Virus record (IMG/VR): IMGVR_UViG_3300044820_000139
Location: 1,430 to 65,429 of that record
Direction: 5' to 3' (one strand)
Origin: a virus
Taxonomy: Duplodnaviria > Caudoviricetes
DNA length: 64,000 nt
A program made the position numbers and the translations under genes. Below, piece by piece: positions 34,890 to 61,400 of the stretch. Below the pieces are notes generated by a model. It was not told the DNA's origin and searched no databases. It worked only from the letters and a program-made list of their open reading frames with translations. The number at the start of each line of letters is the position of its first letter. Positions within the stretch are counted from its first letter, which is position 1.

Positions 34890-34958
34890 TGCGTTTCTCC
34901 TTCGGCGTAAACTGTGCCAGGATTCTGTTGCCAGGCCCCCGGCTTGCCCCGGCTGTTT

Positions 34959-35039
34959 TTAGGCAGCCATTTGAAGCGCTTCGGTTGCGACCGGGAAGGT
35001 CAGAACCTTGGCAAGCTTCTTACCGTCACGTGAAGTGGC
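34959..35039 (-). other. tmRNA tag reading frame: ATSRDGKKLAKVLTFPVATEALQMAA
   Basis: Resume codon GCC after pk1 (TTGAT/ATCAA) and ACAGAAAACT; stop lies in the GGCTG/CAGCC hairpin; ends ...AA like ClpXP tags. Confidence 0.8.
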
Positions 35040-35124
35040 AGTTTTCTGTTTGATTCTCGTTACGGTGAGCATCAATCCCGGCACGAAACTGTACTCCGCT
35101 GATCCCGTCGAAACCGTGACAGGC

Positions 35125-35224
35125 CCACCTGATTCCATCAAAAGCGCCTCTATTTCTGTGTCCCTCGCATACCCGAGGAGGATTGCTTTCACTGGGCTCA
35201 CACATCTTTGATGGAATCAGGTGG
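35125..35224. repeat. 18-bp perfect inverted repeat closing the tmRNA intervening segment
   Basis: CCACCTGATTCCATCAAA (35125-35142) and TTTGATGGAATCAGGTGG (35207-35224), in the same register as the acceptor stem. Confidence 0.95.
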
Positions 35225-35462
35225 ACCTGGCGGGAATCGAACCCGCGTCCGAAATCACCTTTGTACAGCATTGACGTGCGTACTAATTGCGACACTGGCC
35301 ACTATCCAGCATTCATCTGTTCGGGTTATATGCCGGGAACTCGGCAGTGTTCTTCCGAGACGGACCCTATTTAGAGAGAGGATGCTTTCAACTGCATCGC
35401 CGCAAACCTTGGGGGGCGTCTTGGTGACCGTCCCTCCACCACTCGGTCTACATCGGGGTTGG

Positions 35463-36091: not shown

Positions 36092-36314
36092 AAGAGCGGC
36101 CCTCGGTCTTGCGCCCATTCGGTTACCGCCTCAGACGCAAACTTAAAAGGATCGCGGATCCTTGCAACTCCCTGGGATCGGGCGCATATGCTCGGAGAAG
36201 CATTTTTCCGTCCCAACAACCTGCAAAGCTCCGCGACATCGTGGGCCCAGCTGCCGGCCGCTCTCCTTCGCCAAGCCCCAAGGCCAGCGAAGCGGCAGAA
36301 AGCTGGCGCCGAGC

Positions 36315-36608
36315 CTAACCGACAAAATTTGCGATTGGCTCAAACTTCACAGTAAGCTGGGCGTGGCCATTCACATCGCCCGATCTCCAGGATGTCCCTG
36401 CCGCCTCAACCCGCACACCGCCCGGATTCTCAAGACTGAGCAGAAAATTCAACTGCGCTTCGATGGCTTTCTTCGTCAAAGCCGCCGCGGCGAACTCGTG
36501 CTTGAACCCTTCAGTCTTTTCCAGGTTCTCCAGAATCGGCTTGAATTGCTCTTCTAGCGACTGCTTGACCGCTGCCGCCCTTCCTGTCGCTGCTACACTC
36601 CAACTCAT
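36315..36608 (-). CDS. Hypothetical protein (MSW-start family)
   Basis: ATG 36608 behind AGAGGAG; MSWSVAATGRAAAVK... Confidence 0.65.
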   Translation of the reverse strand: MSWSVAATGRAAAVKQSLEEQFKPILENLEKTEGFKHEFAAAALTKKAIEAQLNFLLSLENPGGVRVEAAGTSWRSGDVNGHAQLTVKFEPIANFVG

Positions 36609-37225: not shown

Positions 37226-37705
37226 TCAAGACGGCAGTGCAAATCTCTGTGGAAAAGCGGAAGTCTCGCTCCGTGGAATACGCGCCTCATCCAGCATGGT
37301 TCCGCTCGTTGATGCAGAAGACGGATGGGCGATTGTAAAAGGCTTATCAGGCTGCGGTGGGTTATCGTCAAGTTGCATTCTTAAATTATTATCTCCATCC
37401 GTTATTGCCCACTCTTTAGCGTAAGCCGCCCGGAACACCGGATCACACATCAGCTCGTCGTACTTCGTGGGCCATTTTTTCATAGCAAGTTGGCTCCTCG
37501 AATCGGCAAGCTGTGTTTTGTAAGGACAATCCCCGTCATGATCATCTTTCCATAGATTTCGGTCGGCAGTCATTTCAGCAAGCTGGCGCTCCAGATCGGC
37601 ATAATCAGCGTAAAACACTACTTCTCCATTTATTGCCGGAGTGTATGCATTTTCGTCTTGATTCCATGTTCTTCGGATTGCGTCTCTCATCATGATTTCA
37701 GCCAT
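37226..37705 (-). CDS. Hypothetical protein
   Basis: ATG 37705 behind GGAGGG. Confidence 0.55.
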   Translation of the reverse strand: MAEIMMRDAIRRTWNQDENAYTPAINGEVVFYADYADLERQLAEMTADRNLWKDDHDGDCPYKTQLADSRSQLAMKKWPTKYDELMCDPVFRAAYAKEWAITDGDNNLRMQLDDNPPQPDKPFTIAHPSSASTSGTMLDEARIPRSETSAFPQRFALPS

Positions 37706-39115: not shown

Positions 39116-39356
39116 CTTTCAACCCCTCAGCCTCAATTGTGGCTTTCATTTCGTCGAATTGCTGTTTGTTAAAGAGAATCAAGCAGGCTTTCAACTCGCC
39201 AAACATAAGAGCAGCTAACACGTTTCCTGCTATTCCCATAGTGATCTGGCTGCCAGCCTTAACCGCTTTCATGTTGAGAACTTCGGCACCCATGCGAATA
39301 TCCTTGTTCTCATCTGACATTCGTTTCAGAACATCAAAATTGTTTACTTCAGGCAT
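39105..39356 (-). CDS. Hypothetical protein
   Basis: 83 aa ORF overlapping both neighbours. Confidence 0.65.
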   Translation of the reverse strand: MPEVNNFDVLKRMSDENKDIRMGAEVLNMKAVKAGSQITMGIAGNVLAALMFGELKACLILFNKQQFDEMKATIEAEGLKDGN

Positions 39357-40512
39357 CTCTCAATCCCTCCAGCCAGTAGGCCCACTCCTGCAGCATCTGC
39401 TTGCGTTCGTCGCCGTATTGGTAACGGTTATAAATCCCGCGCACTCCAGGCTGTGTGTGATTCAAAGCTTTTTCGATCCATTCCGGGTTGTACTTCATCT
39501 CCGTCAGGTGTGTGCTGGCCGTCCGGCGCAGATCGTGCGGCGTAAAATGCGGCATCCCCCACTTAATGCGGTTCATCGCCTTGTTGAGCGTCGCCGGTCC
39601 CATGGGTTCGGTCAGCGAGTCGCGCATCGGCAGCACTACATCAGCATTGCCGGCCAGACCTTTCAGGTGCAAAAAGAGTTGGTGAGCGCGCTGGCTTAGA
39701 TAGACGATGTGCGGCTTGCCGGTCTTCGAGAGCTCCGCTGGTACTTCCCATAGGCCCACGTTCAGGTCAACGTGTTCCCAGCGCGCGCACCGCAGTTCGC
39801 TCTTGCGGCAGAGAGTCAGCAGCATCAACTCGAGAACGGTCCCGATTCTTCCCAGGCGTACATCCAGCACCTTTTGCAGGAAGATTTTCAACTCAGCCGC
39901 GCTCAGATAGCGCTCCCGGCTGTGGTGGCGCGTCACAAAGCGCAGCGGCGTCCGGTCGACGGGATTGGCCTCAGAGACGCCGCAGACGCGCCCATAATCG
40001 AACAGCCGCTTGAGCAGGTGCCGAATCGCAGCGGCGGCCTCTGGGCTTCCCTCGTCGCGGCGGGCGAAGATCAGCCGCTGCACCTCTTCGCCGGTCACAC
40101 GGTTCATTGGCCGGGCACCCAGCGCTGGATAGACGTCGCGCTTGAGGTAGCGCTCAACAGTCTTCGGCTCCTTGCGGGCTGGCGTTACCACCTCGGCCAT
40201 CCAACGGGCGCCGAACTCTTGCACTGTCACCCGGTCGCCGGCACGCAGCCGCTCGCGTCGTTGATGCTCTGCTGCGCTCTCGCCCCGCGCCACAATCTCA
40301 GCCATCAAGTCCCGCCGCTTGCGCGCAGCGTCGAGCGACATCCGCGGCCATTGCCCGAGAGTAAGGCTCTCGCGCTTGCCGGCCAGAATGTAGCGATAGA
40401 CCCAGGACTTGCGGCCAGAAGGCTGCACAACCAGCTCAAGTCCCGCGCCCGCGCCGGCGGAGTAGCGCACAGTGCGCGGTGCCAGCTTGCGGATTTGAGT
40501 GGTGGTCAGCAT
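39349..40512 (-). CDS. int: Tyrosine recombinase/integrase (P4-like, N-terminal arm-binding domain)
   Basis: GLELVVQPSGRKSWVYRY arm domain; CRKSE (R), KTG (K), HDLRRT, LNH, YNRY (Tyr). Confidence 0.9.
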   Translation of the reverse strand: MLTTTQIRKLAPRTVRYSAGAGAGLELVVQPSGRKSWVYRYILAGKRESLTLGQWPRMSLDAARKRRDLMAEIVARGESAAEHQRRERLRAGDRVTVQEFGARWMAEVVTPARKEPKTVERYLKRDVYPALGARPMNRVTGEEVQRLIFARRDEGSPEAAAAIRHLLKRLFDYGRVCGVSEANPVDRTPLRFVTRHHSRERYLSAAELKIFLQKVLDVRLGRIGTVLELMLLTLCRKSELRCARWEHVDLNVGLWEVPAELSKTGKPHIVYLSQRAHQLFLHLKGLAGNADVVLPMRDSLTEPMGPATLNKAMNRIKWGMPHFTPHDLRRTASTHLTEMKYNPEWIEKALNHTQPGVRGIYNRYQYGDERKQMLQEWAYWLEGLRDA

Positions 40513-41174: not shown

Positions 41175-41576
41175 TTAATCAGGTAGTGCTTCAATAACTG
41201 CCAGAAAATAGCTCCACGGCGCGCCCGCTGCCAGCAAATCGCTCCACGACGCGCCCGCTGCCAGCAAATCGCTCCACGACGCTCCCGCTGCCCGCAAATC
41301 GCTCCACGGCGCGCCCGCTGCCCGCAAATCGCTCCACGGCGCGCCCGCTGCCAGCAAATCGCTCCACGACGCGCCCGCTGCCAGCAAATCGCTCCACGAC
41401 GCTCCCGCTGCCAGCAAATCGCTCCACGACGCTCCCGCTGCCCGCAAATCGCTCCACGGCGCGCCCGCTGCCCGCAAATCGCTCCACGGCGCTCCCGCTG
41501 CCCGCTTGGTTTCTATTTCGTTGATCCTGGTCTTGAAAACTTTAAACTCTTCCAAAAGTTCCTTCTTACTCTTCAT
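41175..41576 (-). CDS. Decapeptide-repeat protein paralogue, 10 repeats
   Basis: Near-identical head and tail to the 40515 gene; 7 fewer repeats (210 bp). Confidence 0.75.
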   Translation of the reverse strand: MKSKKELLEEFKVFKTRINEIETKRAAGAPWSDLRAAGAPWSDLRAAGASWSDLLAAGASWSDLLAAGASWSDLLAAGAPWSDLRAAGAPWSDLRAAGASWSDLLAAGASWSDLLAAGAPWSYFLAVIEALPD

Positions 41577-42753: not shown

Positions 42754-42972
42754 ATGGAACAATTGGAACAGTTTTCAGAGTGGGCGATCACGTGGCAGGG
42801 GATTGCGTGGATTGCTGTGGTGGTTATGCTTGCAGAACTGTGGAGTTTTTGGCAGATGGGTCGAAGCCGGCGCCGGTACAATGCCAAGCTGGAAGTTGAG
42901 GCACGAGCACTCGACAAGGAATTGAAAGCTGCGGAGTTGGCGCGTACAAACCCCATCGACTTTAGAGATTGA
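42754..42972 (+). CDS. Small membrane protein
   Basis: One TM segment then a coiled coil; GAGGA RBS. Confidence 0.6.
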   Translation: MEQLEQFSEWAITWQGIAWIAVVVMLAELWSFWQMGRSRRRYNAKLEVEARALDKELKAAELARTNPIDFRD

Positions 42973-42983
42973 GGAGATTCACC

Positions 42984-43394
42984 GTGAGACAAAGAAAATT
43001 AAATGCCGCTTTATTGCTTGAGCACGCTGAACGTCAGGCGGATGAAGCAAAGCGTCTGATTGAGAAACTTAAAGGCCAGTTAGCAAAGCTGACATTGGAG
43101 CACAACGGCCTTGAAGTTGATCGGCTGGCGCGCGCGGTCCGGCTCAATGGTCAGCGGCGCGAACTGAGTCAGGTGCAGTTCGATCTGCTGGTCTCTCTAC
43201 TTCTCAACCGCGGTCGCGTGCTGACCGCCGAGGCGCTGCTGCCCATCTTCTCCAAGAGCACTTCGCGCAACAAAAACATGGTTGAGTTCCACATCTTCCA
43301 TCTGCGGCGAGCGCTTTGGCCTGGGCTGATCCGCACCGTCAAAGGACAGGGATACACGATCGATCTCGTGAGTGAGGTAACAAATGAAGCTTGA
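42984..43394 (+). CDS. OmpR/PhoB-type winged-helix DNA-binding protein without receiver domain
   Basis: LEVDRLARAVRLNGQRRELS..QFDLL..L...GRVLT...VEFHIFHLRRAL...IRTVKGQGY; GTG start behind GAGGAG. Confidence 0.85.
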   Translation: MRQRKLNAALLLEHAERQADEAKRLIEKLKGQLAKLTLEHNGLEVDRLARAVRLNGQRRELSQVQFDLLVSLLLNRGRVLTAEALLPIFSKSTSRNKNMVEFHIFHLRRALWPGLIRTVKGQGYTIDLVSEVTNEA

Positions 43395-44893: not shown

Positions 44894-44903
44894 AAGAATG
44901 TTC

Positions 44904-44933
44904 TTGACAAACTGCGGACACATTTTGTATCGT
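44904..44933 (+). promoter_or_regulatory. Sigma70-type promoter upstream of the groESL block
   Basis: TTGACA (44904-44909), 18 nt, TATCGT (44928-44933). Confidence 0.55.
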
Positions 44934-45143
44934 CTCGCTTGTACTTGTTTTCACGCTGCTGCTGCTTCCCGTGTTCGCAAGACATCGCTGAATCGGGAGG
45001 AAAGGCTTTTATGCTTTCCGCTTTTTCCCCGGACCTCGACGCTATACGTCCTTACGGTCTATCTTCCAACGACATCCGCTACATTGGCATTGACCGCTCG
45101 CCGGCCACGCCTTTCCGCATCTTTATTCCTGAAAGGATTCTGC

Positions 45144-45518
45144 ATGAAAATCAAACTGTTTTCTACCTTGGCGCCTCTGTGCGCCCTGATGCTCGCAACT
45201 TCTACAGCCGCACCACAAACAGCACATCCCGTCGTAACCGGCCGCGATAAGCAGGCTGTTCCCGACTTGGTTACAGTGGCAGGTGCGCCTGTTCGTGAAG
45301 CGCTGCCCCAGCCAACCGAGGTTCAACGGCTCAAACTCGAAAACCTTCAGCTCAAGGCGACTTTGCTTTCACAGCAACAGCAGGCCTTGCAGCAGGAATA
45401 TGGCGCGCTGATTCAGACGATTATTGCCGAGCATCCCGGCTATATCTGGAATCCGCAGACCGCCGCGCTTCAGCCCGCCCCGAAACCAGTGCCTCAACCC
45501 AAACCCGCCGTAAAGTAA
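45144..45518 (+). CDS. Secreted coiled-coil protein
   Basis: ATG 45144 behind AAAGGA; signal-like MKIKLFSTLAPLCALMLATSTAA; Gln/Leu coiled coil. Confidence 0.6.
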   Translation: MKIKLFSTLAPLCALMLATSTAAPQTAHPVVTGRDKQAVPDLVTVAGAPVREALPQPTEVQRLKLENLQLKATLLSQQQQALQQEYGALIQTIIAEHPGYIWNPQTAALQPAPKPVPQPKPAVK

Positions 45519-45521
45519 CAA

Positions 45522-46109
45522 ATGCTTCGAAGGAGATTTCTCTTGGCTGAAAAAGACTTTGCGAAGTGCCCTCATTGCAACGTTCGTTACGATCCCTCAA
45601 GACCTGAGTGTGATAATCATCTGCGCTCTTGTGTCTTCTATCATCCAGGCAACGCTGAAATTCCAACGTGCCCTGAATGTGGCGTTTATTTTGATCCTTT
45701 GCGGAGTACGGCAGGCAATCACCTGCGCACTTGTCTTCATTTTCCAGGTAACGAAAGTCTGGTATCTAAGTCAGGCCCGCTTGGCGATCATATCCTTGTT
45801 CGTCCCTTTGATGCGGTCAAGACTGCCGGCGGCATGATTATCGCCGACACACAGGCGGAACGTCCCGGCGAGGGTGTTGTATTGGCGATTGGGCCGGGCC
45901 GCGTCACCGACAATGGCATTCTCATCCCTCCCGATGTCCGCCCCGGCGATCACGTTCTTTTTCCCACTTATGCCGGCCAGGACAAGAAAATCATTCTCTC
46001 TGTCGATGGCCAGCCCGAAGAATCTCTTCTGCTGATGCGACAGGATGAATTGATCTACAACCGCGGTCCTTACCAGCCCACAGAAAGGTCAAGCGATACC
46101 AATGAGTAA
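45522..46109 (+). CDS. groES: Co-chaperonin GroES fused to two N-terminal C2HC zinc fingers
   Basis: PLGDHILVRP, mobile loop KTAGGMII, GEGVVLAIGPG, VRPGDHVLFPTYAG; N-terminal C-x2-C-x13-H-x3-C twice. Confidence 0.9.
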   Translation: MLRRRFLLAEKDFAKCPHCNVRYDPSRPECDNHLRSCVFYHPGNAEIPTCPECGVYFDPLRSTAGNHLRTCLHFPGNESLVSKSGPLGDHILVRPFDAVKTAGGMIIADTQAERPGEGVVLAIGPGRVTDNGILIPPDVRPGDHVLFPTYAGQDKKIILSVDGQPEESLLLMRQDELIYNRGPYQPTERSSDTNE

Positions 46110-47928
46110 AGCCCTGCTCTTTGCCGGCCAGGTGCGTCCTGGCGGTCAGCTCCACCCTGAACTGCTCGAAGGCGTCACCCAGTTGGCTCTTGCTGTCGGG
46201 TCCACTCTTGGGCCACGCGGGCGGAACGTCATTATCGACCGCGCCGGCGACACGCCTCTGGTCACCAAAGACGGCGTGACGGTCGCGCGCAATATTCAAC
46301 TGACCAACCCTATCCACCATGCCGCCGTTAAGATGGTTCAGGCGGTTGCCCGGGCGACGGTCGAAGAAGCGGGAGACGGAACCACCACCGCCACCGTGTT
46401 GGCTCACAACCTCTTCAAGAGTGGTTTGGAGCTCGTTTCGGGGACAGCCTATACCATGCCCGGGCCAGCTTGGTTGGGAGATCGCTTTCCGTGGATCGCT
46501 CGTATACCTGGCGTCCGCAAGCCTGTCTCAATCTCGCCTGTCCTTCTGCAGCGTTCCATTGCTCTTGCAGTTGAAGCGGTGGCTACATGGATCAAGCAGG
46601 TAGCCGTGGCGCCCACCGAGGAACAGATTGCCCAGGTGGCCACCATCTCAACAAACGGCAATACCGCGATTGGCGAGTTGCTCTTGAAGGCGGTGCGCGA
46701 GGTTGGCCGGGACGGTCTGATCACCCTTGAAGACTCGAATAGTCAACAGACCTTCCTTGAATTGCGCACGGGATTTCAGTTCGACTCGGGATTCACCAGC
46801 CCTGATTTCATCACCGAGCGCAACCGAGGTGTGGCCATTCTTGAGAATCCGTACATCTTTATCACCGAGCGCGTGCTGACTCAAGGCATGGGAACTCTGC
46901 CGACCTTGCATGATCTTGGGCCTTTGCTCACTTTCTGCGCCGGCTTGAGCAGCGACGGAAAAACCCAGATCCGCGAGCCGCGGCCGTTGCTCGTTGTGGC
47001 CGACGACATCCAGGGCGATGCGGCGGTTACGCTTTCCGTCAACCATCTCAACAAAACGATTCAGGTTTGTGCGGTGCGCGCGCCGGCTTATGGCGAGTTG
47101 CGCCGAGCCATGCTGGCCGACCTGGCGCTCGTTACTGGAGGGGTAGTGCTCAAGAGTGACGGCGGCGAGGTAGTCTCCCGCTGGGTCTCTGAGGGTAAAG
47201 GCTTGCAAACCGGATCGCGGCTCGGCCAGGCTACTCGCGCGGTGGTTTCCAACAGCCGAACGATTATCGAGGGCGGAATCAACGACCCGGAAGATCCAGA
47301 GCTAGTCTCCCGCTTTGCCGCCTCACTGGTTGAACAGGCTCAGGCGATTCAGGATCCGTTGGCACGTGAGCAGATGCTGCAGAGAGCTGGCCGGCTGACT
47401 GGATCGGTTGCGGTGATTCATGTTGGCGCCGCCACTGAAGCTGAGGCGCGGGCCCTACGCGACGCCGTGGAAGATGCGGTGCTGGCAGTGCGCGCCGCGG
47501 TTGCCGAAGGAATTGTGCCGGGGGGTGGTCTGTGTCTCTTTGCCGCGGCGCAGCTGCTCGAGAACTCCGCCGAGGATATGCCGGCATATCTCGCCCTGGG
47601 CGCCAACCTGGTTGCGCAGACGCTGCGCGCGCCCCTACGGCTCATCGCTACCAACGCCGGGCAGAATCCCGATGAGATTGTGCAGCAGGTTTTCAGGCTG
47701 GCACAGTTGCATAAAGGGAAGCTAAGCCACGGCTACAACGCCGCCACCGGAAAGTTTGAGGATATGGTTGCCGCCGGTATCGTTGACCCCGCCAAGGTGG
47801 TGCGCGTGGCCCTGCAGAAGGCAGCATCGATCGCTGCGCTGATGCTCACCAGTTCCTGCCTGGTCTACTTCGATCCTGATGCGGCACGACTGCCGGCTTC
47901 GCCTGTTCAAGGACAGGTCAACCGGTGA
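46102..47928 (+). CDS. groEL: Chaperonin GroEL (divergent)
   Basis: [37 protein letters not shown]...[21 protein letters not shown] motifs. Confidence 0.95.
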
Positions 47929-47944
47929 TTTTGGAGATGTTCGC

Positions 47945-48229
47945 ATGATCCGAGCTTTGCGTACCACGGTTACACCAATGCGGCCTCCCCGGCTGACCGG
48001 AACCCTCTTTCGCATTTTGGATGAGGGTTTCGGATTCATTCATTCCGACTGTGGCGGCCGAGATCACTTCGTCTCCATCACAGAGATGCGCAACCGTGCC
48101 GACTGGCAGGCCGCCAGAGCCGCTATCGCCGACCAGGGAGGGATGAGGGTTAGTTTCTTCTCTGGCGCGCCCAAGGCAAAGAATCAGGCCCCGCGAGCGC
48201 TGGATGTGGCGCCGCTTTCCATGGCCTAA
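47945..48229 (+). CDS. Cold-shock-domain protein
   Basis: GFGFI (RNP1), DHFVSITEM (RNP2-like), APRALDV; GGAG RBS. Confidence 0.75.
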   Translation: MIRALRTTVTPMRPPRLTGTLFRILDEGFGFIHSDCGGRDHFVSITEMRNRADWQAARAAIADQGGMRVSFFSGAPKAKNQAPRALDVAPLSMA

Positions 48230-48257
48230 AAAGAACAAGGATATATGGGGGTCTAAA

Positions 48258-48791
48258 ATGCCAGTGATGTGGGTAACTAAAGATGGAATCAAGATGCTCG
48301 ACGACGATGGGGTTGTGCGGCCCTGGGGTGAGCATGTAGCTATGCAGAGCGTTGCTGAACTTAATCACTCAGAGGTTGATCGTCGACGTTACCTACAGCC
48401 TAGCAGATCGCTATGTTTTGCTTGTTTGAAGGCTGCGGCTATCACTATTATTATCTGTGTTTTGCTTTACGCTTTAATGCTCTTCTGTGATAGTTATTGC
48501 CCAAGGATTTTTGACTACTTTTCCGAATTTTCCACAGGGTTTATCCACAGCCCTGTGCAACGCGCGTACAGTGAAGGAAAACCGGGTGCCTTACTGCTCG
48601 GTTATCCACTTTTACAGAAAAGCGTCCACAGAATGATCCACAGGGAGCGCGTCTGTAACTGGGTTTCTTTGCTAAAACTTGGCGAGAAATCCGAAACTTC
48701 CACAGGCAACTACTACTACTACGGGTATTTATATAGTTTATCTACCCGTAAAAGCCGTCGTATCGGCGACCATCAACCGCAACCCGTCTGA
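48258..48791 (+). CDS. Hypothetical membrane protein reading through the putative origin
   Basis: Open frame with one TM segment; the C-terminal half overlaps DnaA boxes and may be fortuitous. Confidence 0.3.
   Translation: MPVMWVTKDGIKMLDDDGVVRPWGEHVAMQSVAELNHSEVDRRRYLQPSRSLCFACLKAAAITIIICVLLYALMLFCDSYCPRIFDYFSEFSTGFIHSPVQRAYSEGKPGALLLGYPLLQKSVHRMIHRERVCNWVSLLKLGEKSETSTGNYYYYGYLYSLSTRKSRRIGDHQPQPV
48528..48750 (+). other. oriC-like replication origin: DnaA boxes, DnaA-trios, AT-rich tract
   Basis: TTTTCCACA 48528, TTATCCACA 48541, TTATCCACT 48602, GCGTCCACA 48622, TGATCCACA 48634, ACTTCCACA 48696; then GGC, CTACTACTACTAC 48710-48722, and TATTTATATAGTTTAT. Confidence 0.75.
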
Positions 48792-48808
48792 AAGCACCGG
48801 AGGTGCCC

Positions 48809-49183
48809 GTGTCCAAACCTGATCTGCAGCCCGTAAACCTTGGCTCCATTGCGCACGGCGCGCTGATGGAACTCTTCAACCTGGAGATTGCCAAGATAGC
48901 CGCCAACATCGCCGACTCAAACACCAAAGCCACCGCCAAGCGCAAGGTCACCTTCGAGTTGGTTTTCCAGCCTGATGCCGACCGCAAGGCGATTGACGTC
49001 ACCACCCGCGCCAGCGTGAAGCTCGCCGGCATCGCCGATCACTCCAGCCGGATTTACCTCGGCAAGGATACCGAGGACCGTCCTCTGCTCTTCGACACCG
49101 ATCCACGCCAGGATTGGCTCTTCGAGCAGCCAAAGGAAAAGGAGAACGTCCTCGACTTCAAACAAACCGCCTCTGGCGAGTAA
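48809..49183 (+). CDS. Hypothetical phage protein (GALMELF..EIAKIAANI.D.NT.ATAKRKVT family)
   Basis: Motif of a common phage family; GGAGG RBS before GTG 48809. Confidence 0.75.
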   Translation: MSKPDLQPVNLGSIAHGALMELFNLEIAKIAANIADSNTKATAKRKVTFELVFQPDADRKAIDVTTRASVKLAGIADHSSRIYLGKDTEDRPLLFDTDPRQDWLFEQPKEKENVLDFKQTASGE

Positions 49184-49244
49184 CTCACCGCTCCGCCATC
49201 GACGCAACCGCAACCCGATAAACCGACACCTGAGGAGGTGTACC

Positions 49245-49561
49245 TTGGAAGATTCAAAAACCATTCTTGAAATCGAGCGCCTGGTCAAAGCCCAGGACGT
49301 GAACACTCTCGCGATTAAAATCGCATCACCCAGGCAGAAGTCAAGATTCCGCCGCGCATTACCCTGATTCCGCTGCGTACCTTCCCTGAGGCGCCGCCGG
49401 CGGAGAGTCAGTTCCTGATTCGCTTCAAGCAGACGCCAGACCAGACGCCAGGGATTGCGCTCTTCAACGTGGATGGCACCAAGTGGCAGGGCGACACCAT
49501 GCGGGCCATCAAGATCTACCTTGAAGAGAATCTGCCCAAGGAAATACCGATTCTGGCCTAA
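49245..49561 (+). pseudogene. Internally deleted, frameshifted remnant of the usual partner gene of the upstream family
   Basis: GAGGAGG plus TTG gives 40 aa; a second frame with no start codes VKIPPRITLIPLRTFPEAPPAESQFLIR...ALFNVDGTKW...IPILA, the conserved C-terminus. Confidence 0.65.
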
Positions 49562-49576
49562 CTACGGAGGATCACC

Positions 49577-49858
49577 GTGCATTTGTTTAATTGGATTCCG
49601 TGGCCTGCTCGTTTCCGCACTCTGCGCGTAAGGAAGCCCCTGCCGGATGGCAAGCTTCACTGTGCGGAGTGCGGAGGCGGTATTCATCGCCATGATCGCT
49701 ATGAGATACTCACCGCCCGGCATCGCGACTGCGTAGACCCAAGGATGGTAGGCCAGAAAAGTTTACTGCCTCCATCCCAGTCTAGCCAGTATGTAAAACT
49801 GGATTATATCGATGCTGACGGCGTCGTTTGTAACCCCCGCAATCCCGAGGATAAGTAG
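49577..49858 (+). CDS. Hypothetical zinc-binding protein
   Basis: CAEC...HRDC; GGAGG RBS. Confidence 0.6.
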   Translation: MHLFNWIPWPARFRTLRVRKPLPDGKLHCAECGGGIHRHDRYEILTARHRDCVDPRMVGQKSLLPPSQSSQYVKLDYIDADGVVCNPRNPEDK

Positions 49859-49862
49859 AACC

Positions 49863-50312
49863 ATGCCCCCCAAAAAAACAATTCTCTATGTCGATCCCAA
49901 CGAAAAACGGCTATCGACTATGGTCTTTGTCTTGCGAACCAACGGTTATCGAGTTATGGAGGCCTGCGACATTGCAGGCGTATCTGCTCTCCTGACAAAC
50001 CCAAATGCAATCGATTTAGTTCTTATCCAACAATGGCCTGCCGCACCGCCGGAAACAATCAACAACGATCTAACTATCTGCAATCTTTGCAGAGTTGCGT
50101 CGCACTTTTTGCCAGTGATCTTACTACGGGATGAGAAACCCACAGAAGACCACACAGCCAATCTCTGGCTTGATCGTGCGACGTTAACAACCTTCGATTT
50201 GTTGGTTAGGGCTAAGGTGATGAGCGCGCGCAAACGTGGGCCGCGCAAGGGCGTGGCGCGCGTGATGGCACTCGTAGAACAAAAACCAGCACTCGCCGCG
50301 AAGGGAGCCTAA
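49863..50312 (+). CDS. Degenerate single-domain response-regulator receiver protein
   Basis: PKKTILYVD...NGYRV...IDLVLIQ...KVMSARKRGPRK; the phospho-Asp position appears to be replaced. Confidence 0.7.
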   Translation: MPPKKTILYVDPNEKRLSTMVFVLRTNGYRVMEACDIAGVSALLTNPNAIDLVLIQQWPAAPPETINNDLTICNLCRVASHFLPVILLRDEKPTEDHTANLWLDRATLTTFDLLVRAKVMSARKRGPRKGVARVMALVEQKPALAAKGA

Positions 50313-50314
50313 AC

Positions 50315-50635
50315 TTGATCTTTCCTCTACCGTACAGCTCCATCCGGCGCAAGAAGCGCGCACGGCCGCGCAGAGGTGAGCCCAGTGCGAAAGAAAAGAC
50401 CGTGCTGCGCTGGCAGGTCTACCAGCGGGCCGAGGGGCGCTGTGAGCTCAATCTGAGCAAGGATTGTGTCCAGGGAGTGCTGGAATGGACTGGGCCAGAT
50501 CCCTGGAGCCATGGCCATCTTGTTCATCTTCGCTCGCGCGGCGCCGGCGGGGATTGGACGGTTGAGAATTGCCGCTGGGGATGCTTCCAGTGTCACCTGG
50601 GTTCCATGCACACAGAAGGGAAGAAACCGGAATGA
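50315..50635 (+). CDS. HNH endonuclease
   Basis: CE...C, HLVHLRSRGAGG.W..ENC...CFQCH. Confidence 0.75.
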   Translation: MIFPLPYSSIRRKKRARPRRGEPSAKEKTVLRWQVYQRAEGRCELNLSKDCVQGVLEWTGPDPWSHGHLVHLRSRGAGGDWTVENCRWGCFQCHLGSMHTEGKKPE

Positions 50636-53235
50636 CCAGTACAATCAGCTACGAAGATTTTTTGCGCGCCAAAGTTCTTTCCACGCCTGATATGGGAATT
50701 GTGGTTGAAGACAGCGAGATCAACGCGATTCTGAAACCCCATCAGCGAGCAATTGTTCGCTGGGCTCTGAAACGTGGCCGTGCGGCCATTTTCGCATCGT
50801 TTGGGTTAGGTAAGACTGTTTGTCAGTTGGAAATATTGAGGATACTTGGAGAGCGTATTGGCGGCAGATGTTTGATCGTCGCTCCGCTCGGCGTGCGTGG
50901 CGAGTTTATGCGCGACGCGACAATGCTGGGAATTACTCTGACCTTTGTGCGATCCATCGAAGAGTGCGGGGCCACAGGCCTTTATGTCACCAACTATGAA
51001 ACCGTGCGTGATGGGAAAATGAATCCCCGCGAGTTTCTTGCTGTATCGCTCGATGAGGCGGCCTGTCTGCGCGGATTTGGAGGAACAAAAACCTTTCGCA
51101 CGATGATGGGATTCTTTGAGGGGAGTGGCATTTATCGCTTTGTCGCGACGGCAACCCCATCGCCGAACGACTTTATTGAGTTATTGGCGTATTCGGCTTT
51201 TCTTGACGTGATGGATATTTCTAACGCGAAAACTAAATTCTTCAAGCGAAACTCGGAGCACGCTGACGAACTAACACTCATGCCAAGCCGTGAGCAAGAC
51301 TTCTGGCTTTGGTGTTCGACCTGGGGGGTATTTCTGCAATCACCCGCTGATCTTGGCTTCGATGCTACAGGCTACGAAATGCCTGAGATGGAAGTACTCT
51401 GGCACGAGGTTGAATCAGACCACACAAACGCCGGTATGGAGCCGAGCGGTCAAGGTAGATTGCTGCGTAACTCAGCAATTGGATTGAGTGCGGCAGCTTC
51501 TGAAAAGCGCAGTAGTCTCGGTCGGAGAATCGAGAAACTCGGAACCATCATTGAAGCCGCTGACAGCGGGCAATTTATTGTTTGGTGTGATCTGAACGAT
51601 GAGCAAAAGGCTGTTGACTCCCTGCTTGACGAACTGGGTATCAGTTACTCCTCTCTCTACGGTCATCAGGATATTGACCAACGTGAGGAATTGATGGGCC
51701 AATGGCGTGGCCGGGAGACAGATGCTTTTGTCTCTAAGCCCATCATGTACGGTGCTGGAGTGAACCTTCAGCAATGCCACCATGCTATCTTTCTTGGAGT
51801 GGGCTATAAGTTCTTCGACTTCATTCAGGCGATTCACCGCATTCACCGTTTTCTCCAGAAATATCCAGTCAAAATCGATATTATCTACACCGAGGCGGAA
51901 CGAGAAATCAAACGGGCGCTTGAAGAGAAGTGGGAGAAGCATCGCGAGTTAGTCTTCAACATGACTTCTATTATTCGTAAGTACGGCCTTGGAGCGAACG
52001 CACTGGCCGACCAGGCAAACCGTAAGATGGAAGTAGAGCGCATCGAGCGGCGCGGAGCAAACTGGACGATGGTCAACAACGATTGTGTTCCAGAGTGCCG
52101 CTCCATGGCAGACGGAAGCGTTGATTTGATTGTTACCAGCATTCCTTTTAGCACTCAATACGAGTACTCGCCAAGCTTCCGCGACTTCGGGCACACAGAA
52201 TCCAATGATCATTTTTGGGCGCAGATGGATTATTTGATTCCTCAACTACTCAGAGTACTTCAGCCTGGACGCGTCTGCGCGGTACACGTCAAAGACCGTA
52301 TCACGCCAAGTGGCCTGACCGGCATGGGATTTCAGACCGTCTATCCATTCTCAGACGACTGCGTCCGCCACTTCATTCAAGGCGGGTTCGGTTTTTTGGC
52401 GCGCAAGACCATCGTCACTGATGTTGTTCGAGAAAACAATCAGACCTATCGTCTTGGTTGGACGGAGCAATGCAAAGACGGATCGCGCATGGGCGCCGGG
52501 ATGCCTGAATATCTGCTGCTCTTCCGTAAGCCACCTACAGACACAAGCAATGGTTATGCCGATGTTCCTGTAGTTAAAAACAAAGCTTACTATACCCGGT
52601 CTCGCTGGCAGATCGATGCTCACGGATTTATGCGCTCAAACGGCAACCGCTGGCTCACGGCAGAAGATCTTGTCGGAGTTTCACACGAGCGCATCTTCAA
52701 GCTTTTTCGCCAGGATTCGATGCGCCAAGTCTACAACTTTGAGCGACACGTCGAGTTGAGTGAGAGCCTGGAGCGGTGTCAGGAATGTGGACACATCCAC
52801 ACTGGAGACCGTAAGTGCGTGGAGTGCCCCTGCAAAATCGCGGGTAGTCGACTCCCGGCGACCTTTATGCTGCTCCAGCCTCAAAGCTGGCACGAGGATG
52901 TATGGACCGACATAGCCAGGATGAGGACCCTCAACCTGAATCAAACTAATAGCAACCGCGAAATGCACGTTTGCCCGCTTCAATTCGATATCGTAGACCG
53001 GACCATCAACCAGTTTTCTATGCCAGAAGAGATTGTTTTTGATCCCTTTGCTGGGATAGGGACCGTGCCCATGAGGGCGGTTATGCTGAGCCGGCGTGGC
53101 CACGGCGTCGAACTGGCAACAAACTACTGGTTCGACGCCTGTCACTATGCTGAAGAGGCTGAGCGCGATTCTTCCGTCCCAACACTCTTTGATTTGCTTG
53201 ACGAGGAAAAGATTGACGAGGTTGTATTGACGTAA
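50632..53235 (+). CDS. SF2 helicase-like domain fused to N4C/N6A DNA methyltransferase
   Basis: GLGKT, LDEA, TATPSPN, GAGVNLQ (helicase); VTSIPF (motif IV variant) and DPFAGIGT (SAM-binding), beta order; start ATG 50632. Confidence 0.85.
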   Translation: MTSTISYEDFLRAKVLSTPDMGIVVEDSEINAILKPHQRAIVRWALKRGRAAIFASFGLGKTVCQLEILRILGERIGGRCLIVAPLGVRGEFMRDATMLGITLTFVRSIEECGATGLYVTNYETVRDGKMNPREFLAVSLDEAACLRGFGGTKTFRTMMGFFEGSGIYRFVATATPSPNDFIELLAYSAFLDVMDISNAKTKFFKRNSEHADELTLMPSREQDFWLWCSTWGVFLQSPADLGFDATGYEMPEMEVLWHEVESDHTNAGMEPSGQGRLLRNSAIGLSAAASEKRSSLGRRIEKLGTIIEAADSGQFIVWCDLNDEQKAVDSLLDELGISYSSLYGHQDIDQREELMGQWRGRETDAFVSKPIMYGAGVNLQQCHHAIFLGVGYKFFDFIQAIHRIHRFLQKYPVKIDIIYTEAEREIKRALEEKWEKHRELVFNMTSIIRKYGLGANALADQANRKMEVERIERRGANWTMVNNDCVPECRSMADGSVDLIVTSIPFSTQYEYSPSFRDFGHTESNDHFWAQMDYLIPQLLRVLQPGRVCAVHVKDRITPSGLTGMGFQTVYPFSDDCVRHFIQGGFGFLARKTIVTDVVRENNQTYRLGWTEQCKDGSRMGAGMPEYLLLFRKPPTDTSNGYADVPVVKNKAYYTRSRWQIDAHGFMRSNGNRWLTAEDLVGVSHERIFKLFRQDSMRQVYNFERHVELSESLERCQECGHIHTGDRKCVECPCKIAGSRLPATFMLLQPQSWHEDVWTDIARMRTLNLNQTNSNREMHVCPLQFDIVDRTINQFSMPEEIVFDPFAGIGTVPMRAVMLSRRGHGVELATNYWFDACHYAEEAERDSSVPTLFDLLDEEKIDEVVLT

Positions 53236-53408
53236 ATCCGTGTAGAGAGGAGAACCTTGCTTCTTCCGTTCATCTGGGACGGTTTACCTAGAACAGAACA
53301 AGCCGCGGTGGGACGGGAAACCTGCCGCGGCATTTATATTCTAATTTTCATATCTTTTTTCTTGTATTTTTCTCTTGACCTGCGGTATAAAGGTACAGGA
53401 GGTACACC

Positions 53409-53639
53409 ATGGACAATCATTCTGCGGTTTTGGACCCGCCTCTTGATCTCAATGCGCCTCGACCGTGCATTGGTTGCGACGCGATTTGCTATGCCTGCGG
53501 CTCTCCAGTGTATGCTGGAGTGCGTTACTGTACCGCTTGTACTCTGGAAATTGATCGGCCCAATTTAAATAAGCTAGCTGAGAGGTTTGCATGCGAATGG
53601 CGAGCCGAGATCAAAGCTGAGCGCCGCAAGGCTGCCTAG
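53409..53639 (+). CDS. Small zinc-ribbon protein
   Basis: CIGC, CYAC, CTAC; GGAGG RBS. Confidence 0.65.
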   Translation: MDNHSAVLDPPLDLNAPRPCIGCDAICYACGSPVYAGVRYCTACTLEIDRPNLNKLAERFACEWRAEIKAERRKAA

Positions 53640-55297
53640 CGCTTCGTCACCGTGCGCCCGATTCGCCGGCCGCTCAATGCAATTCCCCGGCTCGCCTTCT
53701 GCTCTTCGGTTCGCAGTTGCTGGTTGCGCTGCCAGGCGTGGCGGGCCAGGCTGGTCTCATCCATCCCGTCCTTGCGCATCTGGTCGATCTCTTCTTCCAA
53801 AGCCATCCTCTTTGGCTTCACGCTCTCCGCAATCCAACTGTTCCAGGCATACGCTGATTCGTCGTAACAGTCGTCCTGTGGGTTGCCCTTTTCCTTCTTG
53901 ACGGCGTTGCGATCGTCGATTGTCCGGCTGGTCAGAGTGTTGAAGGTGTACGGGCAGGCGGTGGTTACCACCAGCGAGCGATTGCTCAGACCATTGTAGA
54001 GGTGCTGCGCGTTGCCCATGGGATCATGAGCGCCCAGCACGCACGGAACGCCATGCGCAGCGAACACTTCCTTGATGATCTCGTAGTTGCTTCGACCCGT
54101 GCCGGTGTGTTGGTCGTTGGCCGGGTCGGTCATGGCAAAGAGTATCCGCGGTCCTTCTGGATCGCGCGGTCGAAGCTTCTTTAGCCAGGCATCCTGTGCC
54201 GGCATCTTGGGATCGTCGCTCGCCGCAAAACCATCTTTGCAGATTCGCCGGGCCAACTCCTGCGAAGCCATCTTGCGCACCACGCGCTCGCGCACTTTGA
54301 AGACCTTACCTGAGGGAGCCACGGTGTACATTCCCACCGCGGCGGCCGAGTTGCCAAAGCCATAATCGATCGAGATGAAGTGACCCCACCACCACTCGTC
54401 AGGAACCTCCTGAATCGGCAGCATGTACTCCGGTCGAAGGAATGGAAAGTAGAGGCCTTCAGCGTTGCACCAGCAGCCATAGAGCAGCTGCTGCTGAATC
54501 GCCTCGGTCTGCATAAGCAAGGCGTCAATCTTTTCCTGATCATAGAGGGGATTGTCGATCACGCGGGCTGGGATGAAGGCCGTTGTCTTCATCGTAGGCT
54601 TGTCATCGGAGGGCCAGCGCGTTCCTCTGTAAATTCGTCCAGGATAAACGCTGGTCTCCGACGGTCGATCGTCCTCGCGGCTGGCTGGATAATGTACAGG
54701 GCACTTGCCACGCAGAAATACGCCCATCTGCCATCCCTGGCCGGGGCCGCCGGGGTTTGGTGTGAAGCGCGCGCGCGCGTGAAGCATCTGCCGCCGCGGG
54801 GGAGCCAGCCAACCCATCAACTCGCGGATCAGCTTCTCGGGGTGCTGGTTGCTTTCATCTACACCCAAGTAACTGCGTGGGTTGCCGCGGTATTTCTCCA
54901 GGTCTTTTGGATGTCGCAGGTAGCCCGGTTGAATCTGGCCGCCATTGGGAAAAACCCAAGCAAAGCCGGAGAACTTACCTGTTTTTTTCCATTGAGCTCC
55001 AAGGGGTTCGTACATCCGTTGCATTTGGTCAGAGATTTCCTGCATATCCACATAGGACCGCCGCAGGACTAGGGCTCTCAAATAAGGGTTGCGATACTCC
55101 TGCATCGCGTCAGCCGCAAGAAATGAGGTTTTCCCGCCACCTGAGGCACCTCCGTACATAAGCATTTGGGCGCGGCAGTTGATAGCCGCTTGCTGGGCTG
55201 GGCTCAGCGGCCACCAGGGCGGTCTCCATCCAGCAGGATGTAAATCGTAAGGCGGTGCAATTAAGGGTGGATAAGGTGAGATCGTGGCCGTGGCCAT
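53636..55297 (-). CDS. terL: Terminase large subunit
   Basis: Walker A YGGASGGGKT, Walker B GVDES, FTPNPGG, nuclease IDYGFG and DDCYDES. Confidence 0.92.
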   Translation of the reverse strand: MATATISPYPPLIAPPYDLHPAGWRPPWWPLSPAQQAAINCRAQMLMYGGASGGGKTSFLAADAMQEYRNPYLRALVLRRSYVDMQEISDQMQRMYEPLGAQWKKTGKFSGFAWVFPNGGQIQPGYLRHPKDLEKYRGNPRSYLGVDESNQHPEKLIRELMGWLAPPRRQMLHARARFTPNPGGPGQGWQMGVFLRGKCPVHYPASREDDRPSETSVYPGRIYRGTRWPSDDKPTMKTTAFIPARVIDNPLYDQEKIDALLMQTEAIQQQLLYGCWCNAEGLYFPFLRPEYMLPIQEVPDEWWWGHFISIDYGFGNSAAAVGMYTVAPSGKVFKVRERVVRKMASQELARRICKDGFAASDDPKMPAQDAWLKKLRPRDPEGPRILFAMTDPANDQHTGTGRSNYEIIKEVFAAHGVPCVLGAHDPMGNAQHLYNGLSNRSLVVTTACPYTFNTLTSRTIDDRNAVKKEKGNPQDDCYDESAYAWNSWIAESVKPKRMALEEEIDQMRKDGMDETSLARHAWQRNQQLRTEEQKASRGIALSGRRIGRTVTKR

Positions 55298-58431: not shown

Positions 58432-61400
58432 CTAATCGGTTAAAATTCCCTGCTGCTTCAGTCTCGCCTGCAACTCCTGTGCCGCCTGATCGCCCTCCTG
58501 CTCGTAGACCGTCTCCAGTTGGTGCTGACTCTTCTCCGCCATCAGATCGCGCAGTGATGCCTTTTCCTGGGGATTGGCCTTCTGCCATACCTGCATGGCC
58601 TGGGTAAAGCTGAGCCGGCTGGTCACACGCTCCAGTGGCGTCCAGTGGGCTTCACGGACCGCCTCGCTATACTGCCGGCTGGTTATGCGTCCCTTTTCCA
58701 TCGCCTCATTCAGTTTATTCTGGTTGAGATTGCCGTTTTCCAACGCCTTGACCAGATTCCGAAAGGTTCGGTTGTGCTCGGCCTGCTCTGCCGTCCGCGG
58801 CGCCTGCGGCGTTTCGTCGCGGTAGTGCTCAGCCAGGTTCATGGCAGATGAGTTCTGCATGACCCGTGTCGCAGGCTGGAAACCTGCGTAACTCAACAGG
58901 CTCATGCCACCGCTTTTTTCCTCGCTGATGTCAGAAAATTCTCCTTCTCCGGCGCGCTGGCGCTGCTGTTGGAAACTCTTCACCGTAAACGGTATGTACT
59001 GGCTGGCGATAAACTTGCCGTACTCGCCCGCCTGGCTCTTGCCCAGCGTCTTTGAGATGTAAAGATCGTCCTCGTTCCTGATCTCGTTGCCGTAATAATC
59101 CTTGTTCTGCATCATCTCAAGCGATGTTGAGATTGCCGGGCTGGCGGTGTTGACCGCGGTGCGCCAGGGGATCCCGTTTTGAGCTACGTCCTCCCCAACT
59201 GACATCAAGTTTTTCGAATAGCCTGGGATGCTGAGCATGGTTCCGTCAGCCGTCTCGATCATGCTGTAAGCCTTCAGGCCATATTTGTCGGTGTCGGGTT
59301 TGTGGCCGGTCATCAGATAAGTCCCAACTGCCGCAATCAGAGCCGTATAGATCGGCGTGGCAAGGCTGAAAGCCAGCTTGTGCGTAACCTCGGGCTTCTT
59401 CCGTGAGGCTGCTCGCGCAAAAGCCTTGGCTGCGTCTGTCACTCCGCCACCGTACTCCTTATAGGTTCCGCCCTGCCAGCCGACGCTGCGGATCCCAAGC
59501 TGGGCAATCTCAAGCGCGACGCGGTTCCAAAAGCGGTTGTCATAGACCATCTGGCCATAGCGATTGTCTACTGAGTCCCAGGCCGACTGCATCCGGCTCC
59601 TGATCTCTTCTTCGCTCCAATTGTTGTGGTCCGCCTCTTTGAGAATGTTCGCCGCCATATCCTGGAACGATCCCAGTTTGATCCGCGGTATCATGCCGTG
59701 CATCAGCCAACTGCCCGCCAGGTCAATTATGCCCGGAATTGCTCCCTTAGTGCCCTTGAAATAGTCACCCCGGCGAATATCCTCTGTCACTTGCCGCCAG
59801 CGGGCAGGCTCCAGGTTCACGCTTTGCTCGGGCCGCCCGCCGGCGCGCGCCACCCAGTTGGCCTCCGCTTCATACTTCGCGGCGGAGCCGGGCTCCAGAT
59901 ATTCGCGCATCACCTTGTTGCCGACCAGCAGATGCCTAGCCAGTGAGGCTCCAGGAACGGCGCCGCGTGCTATGTGCGCCGCGGCTGAGACTGGACGGCC
60001 TTGGCTCAACTCCTCCAGCCCTAGGGCAATGTCTCCAATCCCCAGGTTGATCGTGCTGGCGGTCGCGTGGAAGGCGCTCAGGCCCAACTGCACGGCGTTC
60101 ATGGAGCGGTTGAGCGTGAAGACGGAATCAAGTATGCCATTGCGCCCAGCCAACCCCTTACTTACAAAGTTATTGAAGCTCTTGGCGGCCGGCTCCGGCG
60201 CGTAGTAGTGGCCCTCGAGCACCATCTCGCCAGCTTCATTGCGGCGCGTAACCGTCGCGAAGCGGTCATCAAGTTGAACCCAGTTCGGCGGCGCGTCCGC
60301 AGCCTTCTTAAAAACGCGCGTCAGACCGATTGCTTTCATATCCTGAACGGTTTTCAAACCAAAGATGTAGCGCTGAATCTCGGCGTGCTTCAACAGCGCC
60401 ATATCCACTGGGTTCCAAGTCTTGGGTTCCAGGCCAAGCTCAATGCCTTCCTTGAAGGTTGGTGGGTAGAGCGTGCGGTGCTGTAGAAAGCTGCCCGAGC
60501 CGAAGAGCGGTTTCGTTCCGCTCTGTGCCTGCATCATCCGGGCCACCTTGCCGGAGTGGTCCCAGATGTGCGGGAAATAGTTTTCGTAGAAGTTCTTCAG
60601 CTTCTCCGGGTCCAGCCGCTGCAACTCCTCGCGGTCCGAGACGAAGATTTCATGCAGACCTTGAGCTATATCCCGGTACTTGGGATCGATTGCTCTAAAT
60701 CGCCCATGCTCCACGTCGTCGATAAACTTAGTGACATCCTCGCGCGGCATGGTCACAAAGTCTTTGCGAGTGTCTTCCAGCGATTTTTTCAACTGAAGCA
60801 CGTTGCGGTCCATTTCGCCGCGCCTCTCGCGCACCAGCGCGCGCAGGTCATCACCCGCGTCGGGATTGTCATCGCGCCAGTCACGGAAGCCGCCCAGTGC
60901 CCTCTGCCAGGTCGACGGGCCGCCAAAAGCCAGTTGCTGCTGGGCACGGGTGTTCTTGCGTCCCCATAGCTGTCCGGTGTTGCTGGTTGGATTGGTCTCG
61001 CCGGGCTTTTGAAAGAGTGGCTGGCCCTCGCGCAGCACTGTGCCGCGCATGGCGTCGGTGACGGGAAGATAGGGAACGGGCTGGGCCGTAGTTGGCTTTG
61101 TAATATCCATTTTTCCGCCAAAATCATAGGCCAAGGCTGGGCTACCTTCTTTTTGTATAGCCTCAGAAAAAGGAATTCCTCTCCCCATCAGTTCGTAAAC
61201 GTCGCTGGCTTGTCTCTCAAGTTGTGCGCTATGTGAACCATCTGAAATATACTCTCTGACCTCTGCAATTGTGCGTTCTGGACCTTGATAGTGAAATGGT
61301 TCTTTGCCTAACGCCGGAGGAACGTCAATCGTTGTCTCCTCAACTTTGGAACCGAACGGCTTGCCGATCTTGTTGGCTAGGTCCGGCACTATCTTGTCGT

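Follow-up and report, generated by a model that had tools for sequence, protein, structure and literature searches.

A DnaA-box and DnaA-trio module resembling the bacterial oriC unwinding system in a group of Acidobacteriota phages: a candidate origin opened by host DnaA

The basal unwinding system (BUS) of the bacterial chromosome origin, which in Bacillus subtilis comprises incC boxes 6 and 7, the DnaA-trios and an AT-rich region, was reportedly worked out by Richardson (2016, 2019) and Pelliciari (2021, 2023). A co-oriented pair of boxes directs DnaA-ATP onto the proximal 3'-GAT-5' trios (PMC10721633), and in B. subtilis incC the distal boxes tolerate an altered distance or orientation, whereas the proximal boxes do not (PMC6669920). 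The rule by which such systems are recognized calls for a box with at most two mismatches (at most four in a tandem partner), a spacer of 0-16 bp and at least three NAN trios (PMC8287927). From the sequences in the supplement of that paper, the top strands were computed here; they read TTATCCACA-AATCCACA-GGCC-CTACTATTACTTCTACTA in B. subtilis, TTTTCCACT-TTTCCGCA-AGAC-CTACTGTTACTACTG in Koribacter, and AAATCCACA-TATCCAGC-GGCAACGG-TTACTACTACTGCTG in the BUS predicted for Granulicella tundricola. Within the literature searched, the BUS is reported only from chromosomes; no account of a phage BUS was found in it, and the papers that name both DnaA-trios and phages are reviews.

Outside the chromosome, DnaA boxes lie by an AT-rich region in the iteron origins that DnaA assists (lambda ori in gene O; P1 oriR, F, pSC101 and RK2 oriV), where no trios adjoin the boxes. 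T5-like phages carry a conserved, noncoding array of paired DnaA boxes at the injection stop signal region (bioRxiv 10.1101/866236). That array shares with the locus described here the conserved pairing of boxes in noncoding phage DNA, but its boxes are placed in inverted repeats of the terminal repeat and come with neither a trio run nor an unwinding geometry, and T5 has a replisome of its own and origins at other sites. Pelagiphages of the HTVC010P type lack a DNA polymerase and presumably rely on the host DnaA pathway (PMC8477408); they differ in encoding a DnaA domain-IV protein, none of which was found in the phage studied here.

The DNA analysed, hereafter the window, is a stretch of 64,000 nucleotides, positions 1,430 to 65,429 of the viral record IMGVR_UViG_3300044820_000139 (Duplodnaviria; Caudoviricetes). 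The record is 65,429 bp long and its termini overlap by 127 bp, which indicates a circular assembly of a ~65.3-kb genome; the window is this whole genome minus 1,429 bp, and the missing part falls inside a giant ORF. The giant ORF (window 58432-64000 plus 3-3629, - strand) appears to cross the assembly junction, its PHROG matches include RNA-ligase-like/2H and endolysin-like segments, and its homologue in the related genome G001 measures 3,693 aa. The phage is tailed and temperate, with the following landmarks:

39349-40512: tyrosine integrase
42.2-53.6 kb, + strand: block of early genes
48204-48791, + strand: ORF of a small membrane protein, which reads through the module described below; only its first ~300 nt look coding
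48803-49183, + strand: phrog_997 gene, of a family labelled 'replication terminator protein'
50569-53235: SNF2-type helicase-methylase
53636-55297: large terminase

The early block encodes an OmpR-like winged-helix protein, an HD hydrolase, GroES/GroEL, a receiver-like protein, an HNH nuclease and the SNF2 helicase-methylase fusion, and more than half of the window ORFs belong to no Pfam or PHROG family. A nucleotide search against phages with 46000-50500 as the query gave no match. In a terminase alignment, relatives were found in MAGs named Terracidiphilus sp. (88% identity) and Acidobacteria bacterium (70%), and the metagenomes holding the phage sequence come from peat, soil and permafrost. 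Taken together, these relatives and habitats suggest that the host is very probably an Acidobacteriaceae-type bacterium, an assignment further supported by the likeness of the module to Acidobacteriaceae oriC.

A number of other features of this genome are recorded here. The chaperonin genes (45522-47928, + strand) encode a GroES extended at its N-terminus by ~85 aa and, after it, a GroEL of 608 aa that is kept in G001, L017, L054, L057 and L060, the relatives where it was checkable. The stand-alone OmpR-type DNA-binding protein (42969-43394, + strand) and the separate receiver-like protein (49812-50312, + strand), both kept in G001, resemble a split response regulator. A tmRNA gene at 34868-35311 (- strand), called by ARAGORN as permuted (two-piece) and with a tag peptide ending in LQMAA, scored 85.9 bits against Rfam tmRNA_permuted and 53.6 bits against alpha_tmRNA; such a gene is odd for a phage with relatives in Acidobacteriota MAGs. 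The Rfam sRNA family CyVA-1 was matched at 36236-36315 (- strand) with 44 bits, against a gathering score of 41.4. Finally, the sequence CGCTCCACG(A/G) is repeated nine times at a spacing of exactly 30 bp (41213-41453) within a gene (41175-41576) that matches the Pfam Decapeptide repeat family PF25296.

Between two early genes lies a module of ~230 bp (48528-48750), the parts of which are as follows:

48528-48536, + strand: DnaA box TTTTCCACA, an exact match to TTWTNCACA
48541-48549, + strand: DnaA box TTATCCACA, an exact match to TTWTNCACA
about 48553-48561, - strand: inverted box CGTTGCACA, the seventh box of the module
48528-48561: distal box group made up of the three boxes above; TCCGAA just before it gives a copy of the double box TCCGAA-NN-TTCCACAGG, which is present twice in the module
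48602-48610, + strand: DnaA box TTATCCACT, one mismatch
48622-48630 and 48634-48642, + strand: tandem boxes GCGTCCACA and TGATCCACA, 12 bp from start to start
48643-48686, + strand: variable spacer from the distal to the proximal boxes
48687-48704, + strand: proximal double box AAATCCGAA + ACTTCCACA, with four and three mismatches and cores 9 bp apart; in ACTTCCACA (48696-48704), the three mismatches to TTATCCACA are all in positions 1-3
48705-48709, + strand: spacer GGCAA, 5 bp
48710-48721, - strand: four DnaA-trios, the top strand (CTA)4 giving 3'-GAT-5' four times on the bottom strand
48720-48750: inverted repeat with arms TACGGGTA (48720-48727) and TACCCGTA (48743-48750), the proposed unwinding element
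48728-48742: AT tract TTTATATAGTTTATC, 15 nt, between the arms of the inverted repeat

A preliminary description of this DNA had reported six co-oriented DnaA-box-like 9-mers, two of them exact matches to TTWTNCACA; all six are indeed present, the two matches are exact, and the inverted box is an addition. It had also placed GGC and then (CTA)4 after the last box, of which the (CTA)4 was correct but the spacer had lost its final AA, and it had rightly described an AT-rich tract enclosed by an 8-bp inverted repeat. Between the trios and the AT tract stands CGGG. The AT tract is the second least stable duplex of the 65-kb genome at both 20 bp and 30 bp, and the hairpin that the inverted repeat could form has no unusual stability (z -0.8 to -2.4). 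The least stable short duplex of the genome is located at ~53331-53360, near the end of the + strand block.

The clustering of the boxes is far from what chance would give. TCCACA occurs 30 times in the whole window, counting both strands; five same-strand copies within 200 bp were obtained in none of 1000 dinucleotide shuffles, where the maximum of four was reached once, and a Poisson estimate for such a five-copy cluster is ~3e-6 per genome. Elsewhere in the window, TTWTNCACA is matched exactly only at 37248-37256 (- strand). When three genomes were scanned, the homologous module was the densest DnaA-box cluster of the record in each (G000, G001 and the G002 fragment). GC skew was uninformative: gene strand dominates it, and no genome-scale switch is visible at the module.

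The substitutions of a variant strain, recovered from four metagenomes, were informative about both the coding status and the constraint of this region. Up to 48507, 13 of the 21 substitutions in the small membrane protein ORF are at third codon positions, while those in 48591-48677 are distributed as 2, 7 and 5 over codon positions 1, 2 and 3; moreover, the homologues of this protein in L001 and L002 end before the boxes. The loss of the third-position bias beyond ~48,500 and the early ends of the homologues indicate that the module, as far as substitution patterns tell, is functionally non-coding. No substitution touches any TCCACA core, and there are none at all in 48526-48590 or in 48678-48760, whereas 10 of the 14 substitutions of 48526-48760 are concentrated in the 27 bp of 48651-48677.

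Protein-guided and pattern searches recovered relatives of the module from the same Acidobacteriota phage group, in which it is kept in at least eight diverged lineages (window/L038, G002/G003, G001, L054, L055/L062, L057, L060 and L073); about half of the viral-contig matches to the exact pattern were set aside as chance occurrences in unrelated DNA that was coding or low in GC. The relatives range from L038, a near-identical contig binned with a Terracidiphilus MAG, through the fragments L001 and L002, whose neighbour proteins are 65-67% identical, to G001, a complete syntenic genome of 65.4 kb with proteins 30-57% identical, and the further carriers L054, L055/L062, L057, L060 and L073. In all of them the module is intergenic and co-oriented with the early genes, in four gene contexts; depending on the lineage, it is flanked by phrog_997, by a signal-peptide gene and GroEL, by DUF5131 after an HD gene, or by the OmpR-like gene. 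Since the flanking genes vary, the module behaves as an autonomous cis-element.

Alignment of four lineages revealed four conserved blocks, at TTATCCAC, at the tandem TCCACAGAnnnATCCACAGG, at TACTACGGGT and at the start of the AT tract, with the single box at 48602-48610 falling in a conserved block, while the 45-nt spacer between the distal and proximal boxes varies freely. The tandem TCCACAGAnnnATCCACAGG is common to all four aligned lineages, and the same pair occurs in L055 and L057. Further downstream, the spacer of the relatives is GGCAA, GGGAA, GGAAA or GGCC, the trio run has 3-5 units of CTA, CTG, TTA or CTT, and the inverted repeat is kept with loops of 15-34 nt; the CGGGT between the trios and the AT tract is conserved along with the inverted repeat. 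There are exceptions: the proximal box is degenerate in L001 and L002, the trio run of L004 is interrupted (CTA CGG GTA CTA), and L073 has the box-trio part without the arms of the inverted repeat.

That the repeats are DnaA boxes is borne out by their logo. Fifty TCCAC sites from eight lineages gave TT(A/T)TCCACA(G), which is the DnaA-box consensus, in genomes of 55-65% GC, and a perfect TTATCCACA is present not only in the window but also in six further lineages (L001/L002, L017, L054, L055, L057 and L060). On this sequence evidence, DnaA very likely binds the boxes of the module; as neither a phage-encoded DnaA nor a DnaA domain IV was found, the protein in question would be that of the host.

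The proximal part of the module was then compared with the BUS. The corresponding cores, written as top strands, are:

Window: AAATCCGAA-ACTTCCACA-GGCAA-(CTA)4
L055: TTATCCACT/TTTTCCACA (the two 9-mers overlap by one base), then GGGAA-(CTA)4
L054: AATCTCCAC-TTATCCACA-GGAAA-CTACTGCTACTA
L073: GTTTCCACA-GGGAA-CTACTACTGCTTCTA

What the phage modules share with the chromosomal BUS is a co-oriented double box (in B. subtilis TTATCCACA + AATCCACA; in L055 TTATCCACT + TTTTCCACA and in L054 AATCTCCAC + TTATCCACA), a spacer of 4-5 bp starting with GG, at least 3-4 trios reading 3'-GAT-5' opposite the box, and AT DNA beyond them, as well as extra distal boxes of variable distance and orientation. A co-oriented proximal pair with cores 8-9 bp apart was seen in the window, L004, L054, L055 and L057. 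The 5-bp GGCAA of the window falls within the 0-16 bp expected of the spacer (~4 bp and GC-rich where the boxes are tandem), and GGCAAC also occurs in the oriC BUS of Granulicella tundricola, the nearest listed example. The (CTA)4 run supplies four trios where at least three are expected, with a central A, on the opposite strand and 3' of the box; these trios point the same way as those of the B. subtilis, Koribacter and Granulicella BUS, and AT-rich, easily melted DNA follows. As in B. subtilis incC, the distal boxes differ among lineages in number, orientation and distance, while the proximal ones hold their orientation.

The differences are equally clear. The phage module is in a virus and not beside dnaA/dnaN, and its AT tract is bracketed by CGGGT and an inverted repeat that are absent from known BUS. 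The proximal box of the window is also weaker, with three mismatches next to the trios and four in the partner, where the published rule, which may not be the consensus of this host, allows two in the former (PMC8287927); the box of L054 has none, that of L055 one, and those of L057 and L073 two.

Ungapped over 43 nt, five of seven lineages (window, L001, L054, L055 and L057) are 67-72% identical to the BUS predicted for G. tundricola, a member of the likely host family, a value reached by 0 of 300 shuffles; L004 and L073 are exceptions at 49-51%, which 13 and 10 of 300 shuffles equalled or exceeded. The other three BUS sequences compared are less similar, at 43-60% for those of Koribacter and Bacillus. 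Apart from the exceptions, this identity suggests that the phage modules have the architecture of the unwinding module native to the host family. A search of 201 host-family genomes for the core CTACTACGGGTATTTATA turned up only one contig of a closely related phage, which argues that the module is a mimic or an old derivative of a host origin rather than a recent capture. Overall, the conservation in eight lineages, the box logo and the identity to the predicted Acidobacteriaceae oriC BUS strongly support the earlier proposal of a chromosome-style unwinding module.

The companion proposal, that the phage has no recognizable replication genes, holds at the level of profile HMMs, by ORF and in six frames. 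Pfam and PHROG scans made ORF by ORF, covering ~70 ORFs of the window and the early regions in three relatives, detected no gene for a polymerase, primase, replicative helicase, SSB, helicase loader or initiator. Three genomes that are 100% complete (G000, G001 and G208) and two partial ones were also searched in six frames with HMMs; the positive controls responded, but DnaB_C, SSB, DNA_pol_A, Prim-Pol, Phage_rep_O, Bac_DnaA and Bac_DnaA_C gave no match. It is to be noted that this absence is qualified by the SNF2-type helicase-methylase, by the neighbour labelled 'replication terminator', and by the family-less majority of the ORFs.

The phrog_997 neighbour belongs to a family that accompanies SNF2 helicases in Firmicute phages; its structure model (pLDDT 66) had no fold match at E<=0.001. 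A link to DnaA through YfdP was also considered, as an atlas ties phrog_997 to PF27127 (YfdP) and the HD protein YfdR of E. coli binds DnaA; it was dropped after BLASTP of the two window proteins (phrog_997 and HD) against the E. coli pair YfdP and YfdR returned nothing significant. An atlas search of 44898-45518 yielded nothing informative, and PDB sequence searches gave no matches.

It is rather probable, from these features of the sequence, that the module functions as an origin of some kind, and we give about even chances to the more specific reading, the likeliest of those weighed here, that it is the vegetative replication origin, opened by host DnaA through the BUS mechanism. In such a scheme, host DnaA-ATP would occupy the distal boxes and the proximal double box of fixed orientation, and would then oligomerize over the 5-bp spacer onto the 3'-GAT-5' trios of the bottom strand. 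The adjacent AT tract would be melted, with the arms of the inverted repeat possibly delimiting or stabilizing the bubble, and host helicase, primase and Pol III would copy the circular genome, as the phage encodes no recognizable replisome. Accessory proteins of the phage may be needed; that host DnaA alone suffices is a bolder proposal, which we regard as doubtful. Several points weigh against the origin reading, beyond the lack of a skew switch, the weak proximal box of the window, the degenerate box of L001 and L002 and the interrupted trios of L004: the known BUS contains neither CGGGT nor the inverted repeat, a lytic burst seems ill served by an origin that DnaA-ATP limits, and an initiator may hide among the family-less ORFs.

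A sister lineage, L017, the terminase of which is 70% identical, offers an instructive comparison. There, the corresponding slot, flanked by GroEL and phrog_997, is taken up by an ORF that contains DnaA boxes, 19-bp palindromic iterons and an AT tract:

L017 18830-19010, - strand: origin-like module within ORF 18431-19444, with five DnaA boxes, three or four palindromic 19-mers TGTGTCCCCCAGGGGGACA and an AT tract

By analogy, this layout is that of a classical, lambda-O-like origin, and the placing of iterons inside an ORF is the point in which L017 resembles the DnaA-assisted iteron origins; it supports the GroEL-phrog_997 slot as an origin and implies that relatives can use a phage initiator. 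The ORF product (337 aa, with a helix-rich N-terminus) has no known family, its homologues are unannotated, and its single-sequence model was unusable (pLDDT 37). No homologue of it was found in the window, G001 or G002. Unlike L017 and the iteron origins, the window has no iterons beyond the boxes, which are the sole repeats of the module, and no recognizable gene for a cognate initiator, be it of Phage_rep_O or of another initiator family.

On the host side, the dnaA flanks of two MAGs of the host phylum contained no clear box cluster, and pattern searches for the host oriC, allowing three mismatches, retrieved only coding matches of the YYY type, at control frequency. Two Acidobacteria MAGs do have a conserved pair ATCCACAGTTTTTTCCACAGGC, with further box-like sites, in the intergenic DNA downstream of lepA (L039 ~1225-1290; L040 ~1255-1290); in G005, this gap is between convergent genes. 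The pair was rejected as the host oriC: the skew of a 104-kb contig is uniformly negative, with no switch there or at dnaA.

Of the alternatives to an origin that host DnaA opens, the strongest is a DnaA-controlled promoter or regulatory region, in which DnaA, an established transcription factor, would activate or repress the downstream early or middle genes, the AT tract serving as a -10 or melting region; phage development would thereby be coupled to the replication state of the host. In every lineage, a co-oriented gene begins 10-60 nt downstream of the module, and in five of seven lineages the proximal box and the AT tract lie a nearly constant 16-17 bp apart. Both would suit a promoter, as would the terminator-like hairpin upstream of the module in L055 and the conserved TCCACAG pairs that host chromosomes carry at a locus without a skew switch. 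Nonetheless, no sigma-70-like -35/-10 pair was found in the module of three lineages, seven boxes exceed the need of known DnaA-regulated promoters, and a promoter would leave both the triplet-periodic CTA/CTG/TTA run and the 67-72% match to the oriC module unexplained. We consider this account unlikely, though less so than the other rivals.

Less probable again, and in our judgement decidedly unlikely, is an origin opened by an unrecognized phage initiator, for example one binding the ACGGGT...ACCCGT arms, with DnaA in the auxiliary role that it has at P1 oriR and in F, pSC101 and RK2. A hidden factor of this kind is made conceivable by the family-less majority of the ORFs and by L017, where DnaA boxes and iterons are joined in an initiator-like ORF at the same slot. 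The conserved CGGGT and inverted repeat, which the BUS does not explain, would find a use, and the OmpR-like winged-helix protein of the early block is conserved, its L060 homologue being encoded directly downstream of the module. Set against this are the lack of a homologue of the L017 ORF in the window, G001 and G002, the lack of any repeats in the module other than the boxes, and the spacing of the arms, which at 15-34 nt is unlike that of a fixed dimer site; the box-trio part of L073 even occurs without arms.

The module could also be a sink or an anchor, an array that titrates DnaA to stop host initiation, as datA does, or that tethers incoming DNA to membrane-bound DnaA, the role suggested for the T5 injection stop signal. 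There are precedents, in that a non-replicative role was proposed for the T5-like DnaA-box array (bioRxiv 10.1101/866236) and prophage proteins are known to act on DnaA (PMC4776307), but neither titration nor tethering requires trios, an AT tract or a fixed proximal geometry, and one seven-box site per genome would be a weak sink until the copy number is high, making this reading very improbable. Least credible of all is the reading in which the repeats bind some protein other than DnaA, for which the phage OmpR-like winged-helix protein, a direct-repeat binder, would be a candidate: although nearly every window box is TCCACAG, the tandem copies 12 bp apart recall response-regulator direct repeats and the phage has separate receiver-like and Trans_reg_C proteins, the flanks of the repeats complete the TT(A/T)T of a DnaA box, the perfect box recurs across lineages, and the match to oriC BUS sequences is significant.

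Returning to the origin opened by host DnaA, a broader proposal, which we offer tentatively, is that this whole group of Acidobacteriota phages lacks initiator and replisome genes and replicates as DnaA-driven mini-chromosomes by means of a mimic of the oriC unwinding module, the inverted repeat together with the HD, chaperonin or response-regulator-like proteins aiding escape from once-per-cycle control. If the module is a working origin, tailed phages would be able to start replication with just a cis-acting copy of the host unwinding module, and the annotation of uncultured phages would change, as the finding of 'no replication genes' would not equate to an incomplete genome. It would also provide a compact natural substrate for DnaA opening in a phylum almost without genetics. 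Two questions would then arise: by what means the virus evades the limits that the cell cycle sets on DnaA, and how the host chromosome is affected by the origin of an integrated prophage.
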